From: an uncultured Gammaproteobacteria bacterium
GTDB taxonomy: Bacteria; Patescibacteriota; Microgenomatia; Levybacterales; GWA1-39-11
Reading direction: 5' to 3'
Assembly (NCBI GenBank): GCA_964651815.1
Contig: CAZYWG010000012.1
Location: 1-56,373, forward strand
Length of the DNA stretch: 56,373 nucleotides
The notes under the pieces are model-generated. The model did no database searches, had not been told where the DNA came from, and was given only the letters and a program-made list of their open reading frames with translations. The first letter of the stretch is position 1. Each line of letters starts with the position of its first letter. The translations under genes were made by a program, and so were the position numbers. Of this stretch, positions 18,711-27,002 are shown in pieces.

Positions 18711-18799
18711 TCAAGCCCCGAACTACAAACTGTGAACCGTGAACCATGACTTTTAACCCTCCCTTTTTATCTCATATTAGTTTAAGATAGTATGTGTAT

Positions 18800-20488
18800 A
18801 TGCAGAATGATATTGCCTGGTTTGACGAATTTAAAAAATCCCAGTCTAAAAAATATCTTGAACAAAATCCTATTGCATATTTTTGTGCGGAATATGCGCT
18901 GACTACGGCTCTCCCAATTTATGCCGGCGGCCTTGGAGTTTTGGCAGGCGATTTTCTAAGGGAAATAAACGACCGTGACATTCCTCTTGTCGCAATTGGT
19001 ATTTACTACAATGACGGCTACCAAACGCTTCACAACGTTGATAAGAAAGGCTACATTGACGCGCCTCATGTTCACACTCCTCCGGAAGACTTTGGCCTTG
19101 AGGAGCTCGTTGATGAAGACCAAAATCTTATAACAATTGACGTCCCAATTCATGACAGGATTATAAAAGCAAAAGCTTGGATTTGGCATGTTGGAAAAGT
19201 AAAAATCTATCTTCTTGATACTGGCGTTAAGGAAAATTCAGAAAATGATAAAAAAATAACTGACCATTTGTATGTTAGTGACCGCGAAACTCGCCTAAAA
19301 CAAAAAATGTTAATTGGTATTGGAGGCGTAAGACTTCTTGAAAAACTTGGAATAACGCCATCAATTTATCATATGAATGAAGGGTTTTCCGCTTTATTGT
19401 GTTTTGAGTTGGCGAGTATGGAAATGAAAAAGAATAATATTGGTTTTGAGGAGGCAAAAGAAGCAATTAAGTCAAAAATTGTTTTTACAAACCATACGCT
19501 TGTGACAGGCGGAGAAGATACATACAATAACCAACTTGTGGCACTTGTCCTCTCAAAATACGCTACAGAGCTTGGAGTCCCGGTGAATATACTACTCGAG
19601 GCCGGGAAAGTACCTGACTCAAATACTTTTTCAACAACGCTTTTAGCGCTGCGTATAGCCGGAAAGTCAAATGCGGTTTCAAAACTCCACGGCGTGAAAG
19701 CGGAAGTTCTTTGGCCTGAAAATCCAATGATTCCAATTACCAACGGGATTCACGTTTCTTCTTGGGATGTAATTGACGGCGCGTCGTCAATCTGGCTTGC
19801 ACATCTTGAAAATAAGCGTGAGCTTCTCAAAAAGATTAATTTTGAATCCCGAATCTCCTGGGATGAAAATGCCCTTCTTATTGGATGGGCAAGGCGGCTT
19901 GTAAATTATAAAAGGCCTCTTGCGGCATTTGAAAATCTTAAACGGCTAAAACAAATTCTAGAAAATCAAGATCGCCCGGTGAGGATTGTAGTTTCCGGAA
20001 CGCTCCATCCGTCCGACATTGCCGCTGCAAACTTTTTTGACGAGTTTAGAAATAAAATTGAAGTTGAATTAAAGGATCTTGTTGTCTTTATTCCGGGCTA
20101 TGACACGGGGCTTTCAAAAATTTTGGTAGGCGGCTGCGACGTCTGGCTAAATACACCTATTGTAGGATTTGAGGCGTGCGGAACCAGTGGAATGAAAGCT
20201 GCTTTAAATGGAAATTTACCATTGTCGACGCGTGACGGGTGGATGGATGAAATAAATTTTTTTGGAATTGGATGGGATCTTGATGATAACCATATAAACA
20301 AAAGTATTCTTGATACATTGGAGCAAAAAATAGTTCCGCTCTACTATGACAGACCCAAAGATAATATTCCGCAAGGCTGGATTGAAAATATGACACACGC
20401 CCGAGAACTTATCTTAAAAGATTTTTCGACTACACGAATGTTGAAGGATTATATTGAACAACTCTACCAGCCGCTTCTTCCTAAATAA
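18800..20488 (+). CDS. glgP: Alpha-glucan phosphorylase (GT35), compact form
   Basis: YAGGLGVLAGD, HMNEG, FTNHT, ARRLVNYKR, EACGTSGMKAALNG (PLP lysine). Confidence 0.92.
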   Translation: MQNDIAWFDEFKKSQSKKYLEQNPIAYFCAEYALTTALPIYAGGLGVLAGDFLREINDRDIPLVAIGIYYNDGYQTLHNVDKKGYIDAPHVHTPPEDFGLEELVDEDQNLITIDVPIHDRIIKAKAWIWHVGKVKIYLLDTGVKENSENDKKITDHLYVSDRETRLKQKMLIGIGGVRLLEKLGITPSIYHMNEGFSALLCFELASMEMKKNNIGFEEAKEAIKSKIVFTNHTLVTGGEDTYNNQLVALVLSKYATELGVPVNILLEAGKVPDSNTFSTTLLALRIAGKSNAVSKLHGVKAEVLWPENPMIPITNGIHVSSWDVIDGASSIWLAHLENKRELLKKINFESRISWDENALLIGWARRLVNYKRPLAAFENLKRLKQILENQDRPVRIVVSGTLHPSDIAAANFFDEFRNKIEVELKDLVVFIPGYDTGLSKILVGGCDVWLNTPIVGFEACGTSGMKAALNGNLPLSTRDGWMDEINFFGIGWDLDDNHINKSILDTLEQKIVPLYYDRPKDNIPQGWIENMTHARELILKDFSTTRMLKDYIEQLYQPLLPK

Positions 20489-20546
20489 ACGCTTATCACC
20501 GAGATTGAATCCGAGCCTTAATTCAAATATAATTGAGGGACGCCTT

Positions 20547-20609
20547 AGGGTTTACCCTGAGGAACGAATAGATCGAAGGGTTTACCCTGAGGAATAAAGT
20601 GACGAAGGG
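20547..20609. repeat. Tandem pair of CCCTGAG...CGAAGGG palindromic repeats
   Basis: AGGGTTTACCCTGAGGAA at 20547 and 20577; a third copy CCCTGAGCCTGTCGAAGGG at 20886-20904. Confidence 0.65.
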
Positions 20610-20841
20610 CTGTGATGAAATGGTATCATAGAGGTCTCTCCATGAACATCTTGCCCAAATTGTTAATTTGGCTTAGATGTTCAGGATTCTGAATTTCTAA
20701 GCAGGGATATATTTATTAGGGATGTGATGAAATGGTATCATAGAGGTCTCCAAAACCTTTTTTCTGGGTTCGAATCCCGGCATCCCTGCAAGAAATTCAT
20801 GAACAAAACCTTTTTTTAGGGTTCGAATCCCTACGGCCCTG
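20606..20841 (+). tRNA. Interrupted outer tRNA-Trp(CCA): 5' half 20606-20638, 3' half 20804-20841, 165-nt insert
   Basis: Joined halves give AGGGCTG/CGGCCCT-G acceptor, ATGA/TCAT D stem, GAGGT-CTCCAAA-ACCTT anticodon arm, and TAGGG-TTCGAAT-CCCTA T arm. Confidence 0.7.
20718..20788 (+). tRNA. tRNA-Trp(CCA), intact inner copy
   Basis: AGGGATG/CATCCCT acceptor, G73, anticodon loop CT CCA AA, T arm CTGGG-TTCGAAT-CCCGG. Confidence 0.93.
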
Positions 20842-20847
20842 CATTAG

Positions 20848-20880
20848 ATTTTCTTAATGAACGAAGTGAATTTAGAAAAT
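20848..20880 (+). terminator. Hairpin downstream of the tRNA-Trp locus
   Basis: GATTTTCT...AGAAAATC arms followed by TTTT. Confidence 0.35.
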
Positions 20881-20948
20881 CTTTTCCCTGAGCCTGTCGA
20901 AGGGCTGATATAGTTTGGTATATTCCCCCCATTTGGTATAATCTCCGA

Positions 20949-21692
20949 ATGGTTGAAAGAAAATCAAATCCCTTGACTCCGGAGGCAATTGGAGATTTAA
21001 GAAAAACCTCAAATTACAGACGCGGCGTGACATTTATCATGCAACACGTACTAGACAGACTTTGGTCCTATAAACAATCAGGTATTGCGGGAGAGCGCGG
21101 ATACGATCATACATTTGCCCAACTGTTGTCTAACTCCGAGGGTAACTCGCTACAAGACGTTTTAGACAATAAATCAAATCCCTTGGTGTTGGATCTTATG
21201 AGCAATGGTGGCTTTGTAAGGCAATTAAAAGGCGCCAGGGGCCTGTCAGTGTCTCTTAGTAATCAGAGATCCAGGGAAGAAAGGGAACTAGATGAATCCG
21301 CAGGAAATGGATTCATCAAAGGTGATCTTAAAAGATCTACAACATGGAGAAACATAAGTGATTGGATTTCAAATAATGGAAGAGGTGATGGATTTGATAT
21401 GATTACCATTAGACCAGTAGCAGGTCTTTTGTCTATCCCAATGAACGAAACCTTCTATAAGTATGCTTTAGCAAAATGTTATAGTCTTTTGACAAATCAA
21501 GAAGGATATCTTTTTGCTCAATTTGATAGCCGAATGCTTAATTTTGTTAATAGTTATGTTGAACGTCTTTCAGCAGTCAAAGGCGTTCAAGTAAAAGTTT
21601 TAAGTACGGCCAAAGACCCCGAAGACCATCCTACTTTTATGTTAGTTAAACACGAAGAAGCTCCAAAATCATTAAAGGAACTGCCTCTATAA
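20949..21692 (+). CDS. Hypothetical protein with a probable divergent class I SAM-methyltransferase fold
   Basis: VLDLMSNGG, IKGDL, FDMIT and SLLTNQEGYLF spaced like MTase motifs I-VI. Confidence 0.5.
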   Translation: MVERKSNPLTPEAIGDLRKTSNYRRGVTFIMQHVLDRLWSYKQSGIAGERGYDHTFAQLLSNSEGNSLQDVLDNKSNPLVLDLMSNGGFVRQLKGARGLSVSLSNQRSREERELDESAGNGFIKGDLKRSTTWRNISDWISNNGRGDGFDMITIRPVAGLLSIPMNETFYKYALAKCYSLLTNQEGYLFAQFDSRMLNFVNSYVERLSAVKGVQVKVLSTAKDPEDHPTFMLVKHEEAPKSLKELPL

Positions 21693-21760
21693 AAACGCAA
21701 TAACATTGTCTCCTTTTTAGATATTGAAGTAATACGTTCCAACAAAGTTCACTAGACCCT

Positions 21761-21787
21761 GCCACGTTCAGTTTACATGAACGTGGC
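21761..21787. other. Perfect 10-bp hairpin (terminator or IS200/IS605-type end remnant)
   Basis: GCCACGTTCA-GTTTACA-TGAACGTGGC followed by GCGTTGA. Confidence 0.45.
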
Positions 21788-21838
21788 GCGTTGAAATTTT
21801 AACCCTATCTATTTCATCCTATAGAGAGTAAACTTGCG

Positions 21839-22657
21839 TTGCCTTCTGTTACACAGTATGGGAAAAAAAAAGGAAGAGCTACTGCAGCAAAGATAAAAAG
21901 CAATACAGAACCTAGGTTGATAAGCGCAACGTTAAAAGGTGCAATACAAGAAAGAATTATCCCTCAAGATCACTCAAGTATTATTCCCGGAATCAATGTA
22001 AACGAGCTTAAGCGCTCGCTAGATCTTCTAAAATATGCACTTGACTACTCGGAAGCAATTGTAGACACGGTAAGAACCCCCTTGATTGTTCTCAATAAGG
22101 AGCTCCATGTATTAACTGCGAATAGGTCATTCTATGATACTTTCAAAACAACTTCGCTTGAAACAGAAAACAAATTTATCTTTGACTTAGGTGAGAAATC
22201 CTGGGACGTTCCCAAATTCAAAACACTACTCGAAAAAATCCTTCCGTCCAATACCCATCTTGATAATTATGAGGTGGAGATTAATCATCCTAAAATCGGA
22301 CATAGAACTATGCTACTGTCAGCAAGGCGTACGTATCGTCAAGTAAATAATACGGAAGCAATTCTTCTAGCCTTTGAAGACATTACTGCCCGCAGATTAT
22401 TGGAGCGTCAAAAAGATGATTTTATTGGAATTGTTTCTCATGAACTTAAGACTCCCCTCACAAGCATTCTTGGATATTCTCACCTACTAAAACAGCATCT
22501 TGAAAAAATCGAAGATAAGCGAGGAGAATATTTTCTTTCCAGAATGACCGGACAAATGGAAAGGCTGACGCAGCTTATGGCATCTTTTGTAAACGTCTAC
22601 AAAATACAGAGTGGTAAGCTCGCTCTGAGGAAAAAAAGTTTTCATTTGATAATATGA
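21839..22657 (+). CDS. PAS + HisKA part of a cytoplasmic sensor histidine kinase (frameshifted from the next ORF)
   Basis: PAS (EAIVDTVRTPLIVLN...ANRSFY) and H-box (VSHELKTPLTSI). Confidence 0.85.
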   Translation: MPSVTQYGKKKGRATAAKIKSNTEPRLISATLKGAIQERIIPQDHSSIIPGINVNELKRSLDLLKYALDYSEAIVDTVRTPLIVLNKELHVLTANRSFYDTFKTTSLETENKFIFDLGEKSWDVPKFKTLLEKILPSNTHLDNYEVEINHPKIGHRTMLLSARRTYRQVNNTEAILLAFEDITARRLLERQKDDFIGIVSHELKTPLTSILGYSHLLKQHLEKIEDKRGEYFLSRMTGQMERLTQLMASFVNVYKIQSGKLALRKKSFHLII

Positions 22658-23079
22658 TAGAAAGTATTATTGCCGATTTTCAATTCACCTCAAAGTCACA
22701 CGTTATCAATCATTTTGGATCTACCGGAGTTGAAGTACTTGCAGATCGCGATAGAATTATTCAAGTTTTGATAAATCTAATTACAAATGCAATAAAATAC
22801 TCTCCTAAAGCTGATAAAATCACTGTAACAACGAAAAAAATGGGAAGTAAAGTTGAGGTTTGTATCCAGGATTTTGGCCCCGGAATTCCAAAAGAAGAAC
22901 AAGAAAAAATATTTGAGAGGTTTTTTAGATCACACAACAAAGCAGAATCAAATATCTCAGGCTTGGGACTCGGACTCTACATCTCAACAGAGATAATACG
23001 AAGGCACAGAGGAAAACTTTGGGTGGAAAGCACAAAAGGAAAAGGTTCAAAATTCTACTTCTCTTTACCCATTAATTAA
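22654..23079 (+). CDS. HATPase_c part of the same histidine kinase
   Basis: N box (QVLINLITNAIKYS), G1 (DFGPGI), F box, G2 (GLGLGLYI). Confidence 0.88.
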   Translation: MIESIIADFQFTSKSHVINHFGSTGVEVLADRDRIIQVLINLITNAIKYSPKADKITVTTKKMGSKVEVCIQDFGPGIPKEEQEKIFERFFRSHNKAESNISGLGLGLYISTEIIRRHRGKLWVESTKGKGSKFYFSLPIN

Positions 23080-23115
23080 TACGCAAGGTAACAATAATTT
23101 AACAACCAACCTAGT

Positions 23116-23967
23116 CTACATTTTTGCGTCGATGGCAATCATGATACAAAGAATGGTTATTAGCTTGAGTGAAAATTTAAATATATGGCGCGCCCAGACT
23201 TTGTCGTCTTTGGCTTTAAAACCGTCAAAGGCAAGTTTTAACCAATAAATGCCTAGCACCACTCCTACTACGAGGTAAAAATATCCTGCATATCCAAACG
23301 CTGTTAATGAAATTGTGGCGGCAATAAATGCAATTATATAGAACAAAATATGTATTTTAGTTATCTTAATTCCGCTTTTGACGGGAAGCACGGGGATTTT
23401 TGCCGCGGCATAATCTTTTAATCTGTAAATTGCTATTGAGTAAAAATGTGGCATTTGCCAAAGGACTAGAATTATAAATAATATAATGGCTCCCGCATCA
23501 ATGTGGTTACGAACGGCCGTGTAACCCGCCACCGGTGGGATTGCCCCTGAAACGCTCCCGATTATAGTGCTAAAAACAGAACGCCTCTTCCAGATGCTAT
23601 ACATAACAACGTAAAAAAATACGCCAACTGCTCCCACTAAAACTGTTAGAATGTTAGTAAACAAATACAAAACCGTAAAACCAATGACTCCCAAAACCGT
23701 TGCGTAAGTTATTGCGGCTTGCGACGTTACCGAACCCACAACTAGTGCGCGTTTTTTTGTCCTTTCCATTTTTTCATCAATTTTGCGGTCAAGAAGATTA
23801 TTGATTACGCAAGAAGAAGCAATTATTAAAGTGGTGCCACTTAACACTGCCGCAAATATTCCCAAATTGATCCTCCCGGCGGACGCTAGAAAAAACCCGG
23901 CCGCACACGTTATGAGATTTCCAATGATAATTCCAGGTTTTGTCAGTAAAAAATAAGTTTTAAACAC
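23116..23967 (-). CDS. cyoE: Heme O synthase (protoheme IX farnesyltransferase)
   Basis: LTKPGII, NNLLDRKIDEKMERTKKR, WQMPHF, DYAAAKIPVLP. Confidence 0.95.
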   Translation of the reverse strand: MFKTYFLLTKPGIIIGNLITCAAGFFLASAGRINLGIFAAVLSGTTLIIASSCVINNLLDRKIDEKMERTKKRALVVGSVTSQAAITYATVLGVIGFTVLYLFTNILTVLVGAVGVFFYVVMYSIWKRRSVFSTIIGSVSGAIPPVAGYTAVRNHIDAGAIILFIILVLWQMPHFYSIAIYRLKDYAAAKIPVLPVKSGIKITKIHILFYIIAFIAATISLTAFGYAGYFYLVVGVVLGIYWLKLAFDGFKAKDDKVWARHIFKFSLKLITILCIMIAIDAKM

Positions 23968-24013
23968 TTTAAATATAAGAATCGCTTTTTGAGAACAGAA
24001 TTCGCTCCCGAAA

Positions 24014-24421
24014 TTATTTCATTATCCCCTCTTCACTTTGTATAACCATGTTCATGTCACGAGACGACATATTGTAATTTAAGTGGTTCATAATCCAGAA
24101 AGACCCAATGATGATAATCAGAATAATACCGACCGTTGAAAGAAAAACAAATAAATTCCAGCGCATTTTTTCATCAGTTTTTGATTTTGCCACATGCAAG
24201 AAAAATATAAGCTGCACAATAAGTTGAAAAATGGCGAGCGCGGGTAGTAAAAGACTCATGGTTTGGTCAGTCGGTACTCTGTGACCTGAAGACAAGTGGA
24301 ACATAACTAAAAAATACGAACCAATTGTTAAAACCAGAGACAGTACAAATCCTACAATGTAAGACACGAGTTTGGAATTGATATTTTCCTTATTCGATTT
24401 GTCAACAGAAATATTTTTCAT
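24014..24421 (-). CDS. cyoD: Cytochrome o ubiquinol oxidase subunit IV
   Basis: SYIVGFVLSLVLT, QLIVQLIFFLH, GSFWIMNHLNYNM. Confidence 0.92.
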   Translation of the reverse strand: MKNISVDKSNKENINSKLVSYIVGFVLSLVLTIGSYFLVMFHLSSGHRVPTDQTMSLLLPALAIFQLIVQLIFFLHVAKSKTDEKMRWNLFVFLSTVGIILIIIIGSFWIMNHLNYNMSSRDMNMVIQSEEGIMK

Positions 24422-24996
24422 TACAATACTGCTCCCATAAGATATACAATAACAAAAATAAAAATCCAGACAATATCAAGAAAATGCCAGAATAGACTAA
24501 ACAATGTTAATTTTCTGACTGCACTTTTTGTGAGGCCGCGGCGGAATATGTAAAATATCAAAATTCCCAACCACAAAAGACCCGCTGTAATGTGAAGTCC
24601 GTGTGTCCCAACAAGTGTAAAGTACGACGACAAAAATGCGCTTTTTTGAAAAGTGTTTCCTTCACTAAATAAACGAGTGAATTCCGTAAGTTCCATAACC
24701 AAAAATGACGCTCCCAGGAGAAATGTTGCGCCGGTTGCCATAAGAACTTGTTTTTTGTTTTCTTGCTGCAATGCCAATAGCGCAAGTCCACATGTAAAAC
24801 TACTGGTAAGCAGAATTATAGTTTCTGTCAGGACAAACGGCCCATTAAACATATCTGCAATTGAAATACCACCAAAAGTATTATTATGAAGCACTGCATA
24901 AGCAGCAAAAAGGACAGCAAACATTAGTAGATCTGTCATTAAATATACCCAAAACCCAAAAACTACAGTGTCAGATGAAGATTCGTGTTTATCCAT
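24421..24996 (-). CDS. cyoC: Cytochrome o ubiquinol oxidase subunit III (probable start ATG 24996)
   Basis: [31 protein letters not shown]; GGAGGA upstream. Confidence 0.95.
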
Positions 24997-26962
24997 TTTT
25001 ATTCCTCCTATTCTCAATTTTTGCTACCTCTGCGGCAGTTACTACATATTCTGTTTCATCATCAAACGTTCGGATGATAACGCAAATAACAGCGCCTATT
25101 AGACCTGCTGCTGCAAGCCAAAATATATGCCAAACCATAGCAAAACCAAATATAAAAATGAATCCCGCAACATATATGCCAAGAGGTGTATTTTTGGGCA
25201 TATGGATATCTTCATACTTGTGGTTCGACTTATTTGTCCCGGCCTTCTTCATTTCCCAAAAGGCGTCGCGCGAGTTTACCTCCGGAACGATAGCAAAATT
25301 ATAAAATGGCGGTGGTGACGACGTTGACCATTCTAGTGTCCGGCCGTTCCATGGATCGCCCGTTGTATCAAGGTTTTGTTTTCTTTGCTTGATACTCACA
25401 ACAACTTGAACTACCTGTAGCATTGCCCCAAGCAAAATAACAAGAAACCCCAACCCGGCAATTATGAATAGCCCTTGCCAGCCGGTTGAGGCGTCGTAAT
25501 GGTCAAGCCTTCTTGTCGCGCCCATTACACCTAAAATATAAAGCGGCCCAAAAGACATAAAAAACCCAACCAGCCAACACCAGAATGCATATTTCCCAAG
25601 GCGCTCGTTGAGCTTAAATCCAGTCACCTTTGGAAACCAATAAGTAATACCCGCAAAAATACCAAATAACGCGCCTCCAATTATCATTGTGTGAAAATGC
25701 GCTACCAAAAACAAACTATTATGAAGCTGAAAGTCAGCAGGTGGCACTGCCAGTAAAACTCCCGCTAAACCACCGAACGTAAATGTGCTGATGTAGCCCA
25801 AAAACCAATACATTGGTGTCATAAATTTAATTCGCCCTTTATACATAGTTGAGACCCAATTAAAAATTTGAACGCCGGCCGGAATTGCAATAAAACTTGT
25901 GGTGATCCCAAAAAAAGCGTTTACGTCTGCTCCGGCACCCATGGTAAAGAAATGGTGTAACCATACAAGTAATGCGAGGAAAGATATGCCGAATGCGGCA
26001 AGCACTCCAGAAACATAACCTGTTAATCGCTTCTGGGAAAATGTTGCGACAACCTCAGAATAAACTCCAAATGACGGCAATATAAGGATATAAACCTCCG
26101 GGTGCCCCCACATCCAAATGAGATTCGTATACATCATTGCGTTACCACCTAAATCCGTTGTAAAAAAGTGCATACCAAACGTCCTATCAAGAGACAAAAG
26201 CGTAATAGTTGCCGTAAGTATTGGAAAAACAGTAACAACTAGAACCATACTAAATAAAGAAGTCCACGTAAACATAGGCATTTTCAAAAGGGTCATCCCC
26301 GGCGCGCGTTTTTTAATGATGGTCATTATAAAATTAATACCTCCAAGAAGAGTCCCAAGACCTGAAACCTGCAGACTCCAAATCCAGAAATCAACGCCAA
26401 CACCCGGGCTATATTGAAGTTCTGAAAGAGGCGCAATTGCAAGCCAACCTGTAGCAGCAAATTCTCCGCCAAACATAAAAAAAAGATTTACAAGTATTGC
26501 GCCGGCGACATATAGCCAGAAACCCAAAGTATTGAGAAATGGGGATGCAAGATCCCGGGCGCCAATTTGAAGCGGCAAAATGAAATTTATAAGGCCAAAG
26601 AGAAATCCCATGGTAACAAAAAATACCATGATGACACCGTGCGCCGTGAAAACTTGCTGAAAGTGGTCTGCATTGAGATACCCGTGTGAAGCGCCAACTG
26701 AAAGCGCCTGCTGCAACCAAATCATCCCTGCATCAAGTCCACCTCTGAATAACATTAATGAAGCAACAATTACATACATTATCCCGATTTTTTTGGGGTC
26801 GGTTGATGTAAGCCATTCGTTCCAAAGCCATTTCCAACGTTTTAAGTATATGACGAATACGAAAGCCGCAGCGCCAGCACCCAGCATGGCAACAGTCCCA
26901 CCAATCGTAAACCATTCGTGGGGAAGTGCTGCAAAAGTTAGTCTTCCAAATATTAATTCCAT
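24989..26962 (-). CDS. cyoB: Cytochrome o ubiquinol oxidase subunit I
   Basis: Six His ligands (FTAHG, GHPEVY, LHHFF, AHFH); quinol-site R..D and H..Q; D-pathway ARD; TRRL. Confidence 0.97.
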
Positions 26963-27002
26963 TATTATTGTCCTACATTATATTTCAATGCGCAGAATAC
27001 AC

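Follow-up and report, generated by a model that had tools for sequence, protein, structure and literature searches.

The resident tRNA-Trp gene of a member of the Levybacteria/Microgenomates, an order of the Candidate Phyla Radiation (CPR), is interrupted in its anticodon loop by 165 nt of DNA that themselves carry a second, complete tRNA-Trp, and we consider it probable that a small selfish DNA cassette has here split the resident gene and supplies its replacement. The locus lies in the window, by which we mean the whole stretch of 56,373 nt that was analysed (contig CAZYWG010000012.1 of assembly GCA_964651815.1; C12 in our numbering). The window belongs to a metagenome-assembled genome (MAG) of 1.36 Mb, with 38% GC and 94.8% completeness, designated G000; G, C and L numbers are the labels of genomes, contigs and loci in this analysis.

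The two halves of the interrupted tRNA-Trp(CCA), hereafter A, are found on the plus strand at 20606–20638 (nt 1–34: acceptor strand, D arm, 5′ strand of the anticodon stem and C32 U33 C34) and 20804–20841 (nt 35–73). The insert between them, 20639–20803, is composed of 79 nt, the complete tRNA-Trp(CCA) B at 20718–20788 and a further 15 nt, and it contains no open reading frame (ORF). Thus, the nesting of one tRNA-Trp in the anticodon loop of another, which an earlier note on this DNA had described from its letters, is correct to the base. When 20639–20803 is deleted, a canonical tRNA-Trp(CCA) with its junction after nt 34 is obtained and accepted by ARAGORN, as the earlier note had anticipated; the boundaries are unique and cannot be shifted, with neither target duplication nor loss of bases. 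In the intact sequence, both ARAGORN and Rfam report only the inner gene B (RF00005, 61.1 bits), which has an A1-U72 pair and G73, does not encode CCA and is the sole tRNA-Trp detected in the whole genome. A and B differ at acceptor pair 5 and in the T stem (TAGGG/CCCTA in A, CTGGG/CCCGG in B), differences that had been read correctly from the sequence; in approximate numbering, the bases specific to A are C5, U49-A50, U64-A65 and G67-G68. When the 236 nt are folded, one cloverleaf enclosed in another has the minimum free energy (−80 kcal/mol, z = −4.6). Upstream of the outer gene, at 20505–20533 on the plus strand, a sigma-70-like promoter (TTGAAT-17-TATAAT, 10 of 12 consensus positions) was identified by a consensus scan, and the same TTGAAT...TATAAT block is kept upstream of the uninterrupted tRNA-Trp in G006 and G011. 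This promoter is presumably functional and likely drives the whole nested unit; the consensus scan found no sigma-70-like promoter inside the window's cassette.

The history of the locus can be read from the empty site. A search of 60 relatives returned one uninterrupted tRNA-Trp per genome. In G006, a genome of the same genus, this gene directly follows the ortholog of the glucan-phosphorylase-like window gene at 18794–20488, and it matches the joined outer halves of A at 100% identity, its first 33 bases corresponding to 20606–20638 and its remainder 20804–20841; the 3′ half also occurs in the Logan contigs L156 and L157. A global alignment of the window with G006 leaves a single clean gap of 165 nt, with the upstream promoter and leader conserved. 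No nested tRNA-Trp was found in any of the 11 other genomes of the genus, and B-like alleles are the only tRNA-Trp of other genus members. Since G006 holds a syntenic empty site identical to A, A is the native gene of the lineage and B came with the insert. The earlier note had taken the pairing of the outer halves across the insert as a sign that they are selected to pair, a proposal that this comparison does not support: their complementarity is identical in the intact G006 gene and is therefore inherited and uninformative on selection after insertion. The compensatory differences between A and B are, judging by these sequences, differences between two alleles and not evidence of selection on a split gene. 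As a separate observation, the last 18 nt of tRNA-Trp (GAATCCCTACGGCCCTGC) are directly repeated about 130 nt downstream of the intact gene in G006 (contig C12, locus L006), which resembles an att site left behind by a different type of integration at this tRNA.

The inserted cassette is a double hairpin. Hairpin 1 (20639–20686, plus strand) begins at the first base of the insert and has the arms TCCATGAACATCT and AGATGTTCAGGA; its internal loop (CTTGCC...GGCTTAG) is asymmetric and conserved, and an A/T stem forms the apex. Hairpin 2 follows directly with its 5′ arm TTCTGAATTTCTAAGCAGGGAT (20687–20708), which pairs with the 3′ arm ATCCCTGCAAGAAATTCATGAA (20782–20803), and it holds the tRNA in its apical loop; the 3′ arm takes in the terminal 7 nt of B and extends to the final base of the insert, so that the 5′ arm competes with the 5′ acceptor strand of B for the 3′ end of B. 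The terminal inverted repeats read TCCATGAA...TTCATGAA in the window's cassette and TCCCAGTA...TACTGGGA in those of relatives. Among 66 distinct hairpin-1 sequences, pairing holds in 94.6% of the alignment cells, with double changes at 16 of 19 pairs; none of 500 shuffles was as good and slid controls were 28–60% paired, although the alignment is model-fitted and thereby somewhat favours the structure. The leader-trailer duplexes of hairpin 2 average −13.5 kcal/mol over the family vs −7.8 kcal/mol with shuffled trailers. In L064 and L077 the compensatory changes track the two-hairpin pairing (arm-a with arm-a′, arm-a2 with arm-a2′), and they rule out a conserved helix formed by the two ends of the insert pairing together. 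Both hairpins covary strongly, and therefore a single-stranded fold must matter. Within the stems, non-Watson-Crick cells are G.T in 24 cases and A.C in 22, some of the A.C perhaps being alignment noise near bulges; this near equality, unlike what is typical of RNA families, speaks weakly against a purely RNA-level constraint. A promoter in the hairpin-1 loop was considered as a general feature and rejected: TGnTAnAAT-like motifs occur in several Thr cassettes, the apex covaries as a stem, and the motif is missing in the Cys and Trp members.

The same conserved ends, TCCCAG...CTGGGA, enclose the unrelated tRNAs Thr, Cys, Trp, Ser, Ala and Val. Moreover, empty double hairpins of about 95 nt without any tRNA are present in the anticodon loop of a tRNA-Ser and the D loop of a tRNA-Ala (L132, L140), their hosts being truncated tRNA copies that adjoin an intact copy. 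In a tRNA-Val nest (L149), the hairpin module is inverted within the D loop and the cargo still keeps the sense of the outer gene. Because empty, inverted and D-loop modules occur, the core unit is the double hairpin and its targets are the hairpin loops of tRNA genes. A tyrosine-recombinase core site (arms with a GGATCC centre) is no more than speculative, as the target loops have no core in common with it.

Kinship with other cassettes was reached through weak BLAST matches of the 79-nt linker, which pointed to two other genomes where tRNA-Thr genes are nested and carry the same conserved hairpin. Exact-pattern scans of GTDB genomes and JGI metagenomes then returned 6 CPR-labelled and 10 metagenome loci, all 16 of them nested tRNAs; some further matches in MAGs labelled otherwise are family members too. 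The cassette was also seen in L043, L052 and L087 (ENA records CAZLZN01, CAZWMJ01 and CAZYIC01). A covariance model of hairpin 1, R1, was built from 12 seeds. The window sequence is one of these, and its match at 20638–20693 (52.6 bits, E 6e-10 to 1e-10) is thus not independent; independent support for its membership comes from the leader and trailer motifs common to the window and other Trp cassettes. Five of these were found, all inserted at the same site after nt 34, with the leader GTTCTAAGCAGG vs TTTCTAAGCAGGG in the window, a homologous 5′ arm of hairpin 2, and trailers that compare as AAGATACTTCTGGGA vs AAGAAATTCATGAA. The window's cassette is a diverged member in which all four arms have changed (TCCATG for TCCCAG) yet still pair. 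By BLAST, neither the 79-nt nor the 15-nt linker is repeated elsewhere in its own genome. G000 nevertheless holds a second nest, an intact tRNA-Cys(GCA) inside an outer tRNA-Cys at about 64150–64470 on the minus strand of contig C10, whose cassette is the canonical double hairpin (TCCCAGTACC...) and whose kinship to the 79-nt linker is visible only by the covariance model.

Within the order, R1 matches were obtained in 45 of 245 genomes, representing 31 of 103 genera, vs one other genome among 400 sampled across the phylum, and the family is thus essentially confined to the order, although other CPR lineages may carry other hairpin types beyond the sight of R1. The nesting that the earlier note had advised looking for in related genomes is therefore a recurrent one, found again even in the organism's own tRNA-Cys. 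Directly behind 58 of the 63 R1 hits stands an intact tRNA whose enclosing shell has the same anticodon, namely Thr-UGU in 26 cases, Cys in 14, Trp in 6, Thr-GGU and Thr-CGU in 5 each, and Ser and Ala in 1 each; the tRNA-Val in a D loop is one further nest. Trp and Cys cassettes are inserted after nt 34 (5/5 canonical Trp solutions, 6/6 Cys solutions), the site of Thr cassettes is after nt 35, and in every case YAA follows directly.

These regularities bear on the possibility that the locus is a recombination scar with no dedicated element behind it, a foreign tRNA-Trp with a structured leader and trailer having entered by short-homology or illegitimate recombination, so that the hairpins would be processing stems of a precursor tRNA. 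The resemblance of B to the tRNA-Trp of related genomes, the lack of an identified mobility gene and the homology arms of about 35 nt that tRNA halves provide would suit it, and CPR bacteria are thought to rely on DNA uptake. However, the same hairpin 1 and the same ends surround unrelated tRNAs, the loop position is fixed and the junctions are exact to the base; empty double hairpins exist, and homologous recombination would be expected to replace the resident gene rather than nest inside it. We regard such a scar as improbable.

The fate of the outer shells is uneven. After removal of the insert, the outer shell is recognisable as a tRNA in 24 of the 58 nests and not in the other 34. The shell of L099 has lost its 3′ half, and other broken shells carry GC-rich palindromes in their D or T arms or have drifted without compensation; in the GCCTCCC...GGGAGGC shell lineage, for instance, the 5′ strand of the anticodon stem reads GGGGA, AAAGA, TATGT or CATGT vs a fixed ACATA. 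The tRNA-Cys shell on C10 is broken by 6 extra nt in its D loop and by a 28-nt palindromic repeat of GGGTTTACCC type in its T loop. The inner tRNA, in turn, is intact wherever one adjoins the hairpin (58 of 63 hits), and no case of a decayed inner tRNA with a preserved outer one was seen among the nests. Decayed outer halves without covariation in relatives had been set in the earlier note as an outcome that would refute its proposal, and for the family this is what was found, in 34 of 58 shells and with uncompensated stem drift. Re-invasion is evident from a three-level nest in L102 and from trails of displaced 3′ halves in L064, L103 and L146; alleles of the tRNAs that serve as cargo in one genome form the shell in another. 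Together, these observations favour an insertion at the DNA level with an outer shell that the cell can do without.

Two further palindromic repeats were observed around these loci. A GC-rich palindrome, CCTGCCTGCCGGCAGGCAGG, recurs in the D arm and variable region of dead shells of the L045 type (e.g. L115, L124, L152, L103 and L149) and appears to be a further small, mobile hairpin repeat in these bacteria. Upstream of the window's tRNA-Trp, a palindromic repeat (A)GGGTTTACCCTGAGGAA stands in tandem at 20549–20565 and 20578–20594, with related copies at C11:34489–34515 and C7:67937–67963 of G000 and in the dead tRNA-Cys shell; it looks like a repeat of G000 resembling repetitive extragenic palindromes (REP) or miniature inverted-repeat transposable elements (MITE).

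Replacement at the DNA level would proceed as follows. A non-coding double-hairpin cassette would have entered the anticodon-loop DNA between nt 34 and 35, leaving the target bases untouched, and the cell would keep a working tRNA-Trp because the cassette carries an intact tRNA of the same anticodon and sense. Transcription probably runs from the resident promoter at 20505–20533 through the 5′ half, hairpin 1 and B, and B would be matured by RNase P and 3′ trimming, which is ordinary tRNA end-processing. The hairpins may insulate B from mispairing with the homologous outer halves. The cargo sense follows the outer gene even where the hairpin module is inverted (L149), and this fits a dependence on the outer promoter. 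The outer halves in the window would then be the still-pristine relic of a recent insertion, with outer A presumably non-functional, while in older nests the shells would decay, gather other palindromic repeats or be invaded again to form Russian-doll loci. The distribution of the cassette suggests that it is mobile. Perhaps it moves by an attack on the hairpin loops of single-stranded tRNA-gene DNA, or by nuclease-triggered homing through gene conversion, a proposal that we put forward tentatively and hold to be possible rather than probable.

Several observations weigh against a replacement cassette. No transposase, integrase or homing-endonuclease gene was found in or beside the cassette, nor was an autonomous version found. 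The outer halves are flawless at this locus, which therefore cannot by itself tell a recent relic from a gene still in use. The strong covariation of the hairpins would also suit a role at the RNA level, and the exon ends come together precisely where two helices able to stack coaxially have their base, which would suit cutting and rejoining of either RNA or single-stranded DNA. In addition, the match between cargo and target is accounted for only on the assumption of selection against lethal mismatches.

A protein-spliced tRNA intron of a new kind would draw on the same geometry. An endonuclease, probably a dimeric one, would cut at the base of the stacked hairpins, a ligase would join the outer halves to read ...GAGGUCUC|CAAAACC... 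across the junction, and B would be released by RNase P and 3′ processing, one gene thus giving two tRNA-Trp. In its favour, flawless outer halves are seen at this locus and in several further nests (24 of 58 shells being recognisable), the nested double cloverleaf is the minimum-free-energy fold with hairpins that covary strongly, a helix is closed by the first intron base and another by the last, which brings the two junctions side by side, and inner and outer tRNAs are always in the same sense. Against this stand the broken state of more than half of the outer shells with uncompensated stem drift, beside inner tRNAs intact in 58 of 63 hits, and the lack of any kept outer tRNA with a decayed inner one; the stems have no excess of G.U over A.C, and the module is also found in D loops, inverted, and without cargo next to tandem intact copies. 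Identity to the native gene of G006 accounts in full for the flawless state of outer A. Moreover, a search for the ligase RtcB and the splicing endonuclease EndA (PF01974), as the earlier note had recommended, detected neither in G000, G006, G031 and G040 (0/4 genomes each), whereas the controls were positive in 10 of 14 reference genomes for RtcB and in 4 of 14, all four archaea, for EndA; the absence of RtcB is likely and not certain, since G000 is 94.8% complete. There was no ribozyme hit either. Of the tRNA-in-tRNA intron that the earlier note proposed, the precise nesting thus stands, while its splicing appears unlikely given the missing RtcB and EndA and the decaying shells. Still more doubtful is a variant in which the double hairpin is a new intron class, not self-splicing, whose exons are cut and rejoined by a dimeric enzyme at the pseudo-symmetric junction, two tRNA-Trp maturing without RtcB or EndA; if true, protein-dependent tRNA splicing would thereby be known from Bacteria for the first time.

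An assembly artefact, in which strain variants A and B of tRNA-Trp were misjoined via shared k-mers, is hardly credible: A and B do have identical stretches of 28 and 13 nt in common, the genome is metagenome-assembled and Logan unitigs break exactly at the A/B repeats, but each of the two linkers (79 and 15 nt) occurs only once in the genome and is homologous to cassette parts in many other assemblies, a second nest lies on another contig, and a chimera of two strains would not make hairpin linkers. In fact, the per-run Logan contig L157 (SRR9179562, from another assembler) is 100% identical to window 20723–22927 and so independently joins B, the 15 nt, the 3′ half of A and 2 kb downstream. 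Logan contigs identical to the window also exist for runs SRR9179560 and SRR9179563. No independent contig was found across the left junction (20638/20639), where the exact protein of the upstream gene is without a record and contigs with the preceding gene end about 1.4 kb short. Chance and misassembly are very unlikely, because the same architecture recurs in dozens of independent assemblies.

Known systems resemble the cassette in single aspects. Group I introns of bacterial tRNA-Leu(UAA), fMet, Ile and Arg genes are likewise inserted precisely in the anticodon loop, patchy in occurrence and presumably mobile. They differ in that the cassette carries a complete tRNA and that the outer exons decay in relatives, which is unexpected for a spliced essential gene. 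There is no Rfam hit in the window beyond tRNA, hence none to a ribozyme core (Intron_gpI), only 94 nt are non-tRNA sequence, and the terminal G of group I introns is lacking, as the window's insert ends in ...TTCATGAA and those of family members in ...CTGGGA; the view that it is neither a group I nor a group II intron is upheld on these grounds. In the passage of PMC10714607 that cites Fujishima 2010, archaeal tRNA introns are described as transposing in the Thermoproteales. Archaeal bulge-helix-bulge introns, including a tRNA-Trp intron that encodes a C/D-box RNA, are similar in being structured and protein-dependent, in that they may carry a functional RNA, in their spread among tRNA genes and in their non-canonical positions; the cassette's host, however, is bacterial and without EndA or RtcB. 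Nor do its junctions form a bulge-helix-bulge, i.e. two 3-nt bulges 4 bp apart: by inspection, they lie at helix bases and face each other across an internal loop of 3+4 (Trp) or 4+3 (Thr) nt.

Integrative elements and genomic islands directed at tRNA genes have in common with the cassette that insertion is tolerated as the element restores the tRNA, and that serial events leave displaced fragments (L064, L103, L146). Nonetheless, islands are of kilobase size, encode an integrase and copy only the 3′ (rarely the 5′) part of the tRNA, which is restored at one end, whereas the cassette is about 165 nt long, encodes no gene, nests a whole tRNA and displaces both halves. A classical integrase island had been set aside in the earlier note and we agree, for the insert of 165 nt has no ORF and no integrase gene was found beside it. 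Compared with MITEs of the DDE type, the cassette has terminal inverted repeats and no target-site duplication, its flanks rejoining to the exact native sequence. Its inverted repeats come without a target duplication, a conserved target tetranucleotide or a linked gene, which sets it apart from both DDE-type MITEs and integrase islands. The comparison with insertion sequences of the IS200/IS605 type, which enter 3′ of a fixed tetranucleotide with TnpA (Y1) acting in trans, gives a mixed picture: the hairpins and the missing duplication fit, whereas the left-flank tetranucleotides of the cassettes vary (TCTC, TCTG, TTTG, TTGG) and their hairpins are at the very first and last base rather than subterminal.

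Hairpin repeats such as the Rickettsia palindromic elements and the Correia and dRS3/NTS repeats of Neisseria are also short, non-coding and mobile, with stems of TCCC...GGGA type; to our knowledge, none carries a tRNA or targets tRNA loops. Double-hairpin elements were reportedly described by Paquin, Laforest and Lang in 2000 in the mitochondrial DNAs of chytrid and other fungi, and they similarly consist of two adjacent hairpins that move together as a small non-coding unit, with insertions in genes as well as in intergenic DNA. Those of Allomyces accompany insertions that supply a replacement for a gene end. They differ in having no sequence relationship to the cassette and organellar hosts, and we know of no report of tRNA cargo or tRNA-loop targeting for them. 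Finally, phage T4 SegB is a free-standing GIY-YIG homing endonuclease in a tRNA gene cluster. The likeness of SegB-type endonucleases lies in the small GIY-YIG genes found between tRNA genes, which could drive allele replacement by cleavage and repair; the cassette, on the other hand, encodes no protein, and the GIY-YIG proteins of CPR bacteria are without known cleavage specificity.

Small GIY-YIG genes are multi-copy in the order, with a mean of 8.7 in cassette-positive vs 5.2 in cassette-negative genomes (Mann-Whitney p = 2e-7, uncorrected for phylogeny or genome size), and ten of them lie within the 159 kb flanking nests vs about 1.5 expected. They stand beside nests L119, L116, L148, L139 and L109, with copies flanking nests in genomes G031, G059 and G050, and also beside the un-nested tRNA-Trp of G001 (L002) and G018 (L007); in G000, a 90-aa single-domain GIY-YIG gene (C11:16162–16431) is found between tRNA-Arg(TCG) and tRNA-Lys(CTT), while none flanks the locus in the window. 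Among small single-domain proteins of this family, Ssn of Neisseria is a hairpin-specific single-strand DNase (PMC11893778). By correlation, small Ssn-like GIY-YIG nucleases are candidate mobility enzymes.

The ORFs neighbouring the nest encode the glucan-phosphorylase-like protein, a 247-aa protein and a histidine kinase. The downstream 247-aa ORF was considered as a mobility protein and set aside, having no Pfam or NCBIfam hit. Synteny with genomes of the same genus stops downstream of tRNA-Trp, and the region 20949–27000 may be an acquired one bordering the tRNA; the histidine kinase is present there as two overlapping ORFs (HisKA, 21839–22657; HATPase, 22654–23079), followed by cyoE-D-C-B.

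No account of one tRNA gene nested within another in bacteria emerged from a full-text literature search, in line with the novelty that the earlier note had attached to the nesting. The type of element is apparently undescribed, whereas its principle, selfish DNA that enters a tRNA gene and compensates the damage, is known; the analogues (tRNA introns, target-restoring islands, hairpin repeats and mitochondrial double-hairpin elements) each match single aspects only. If the intron reading were true, it would mean a new RNA splicing pathway in Bacteria. The locus offers a clean test case, with a pristine shell, an empty site in a congener and an older, decayed tRNA-Cys nest in the same genome, and the hairpin loops of tRNA genes together with the conserved double hairpin give a concrete substrate for seeking the responsible enzyme, possibly among the small GIY-YIG nucleases. 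Standard tRNA finders silently report the inner gene only, and therefore tRNA phylogenies and isoacceptor counts of CPR bacteria may track horizontally moving cassette alleles instead of native genes. In these minimal genomes tRNA genes are single-copy and essential, yet about a fifth of the genomes of the order tolerate repeated invasion, because the invader delivers a spare tRNA. Selfish DNA that makes good the damage it causes is thus represented here in compact form.

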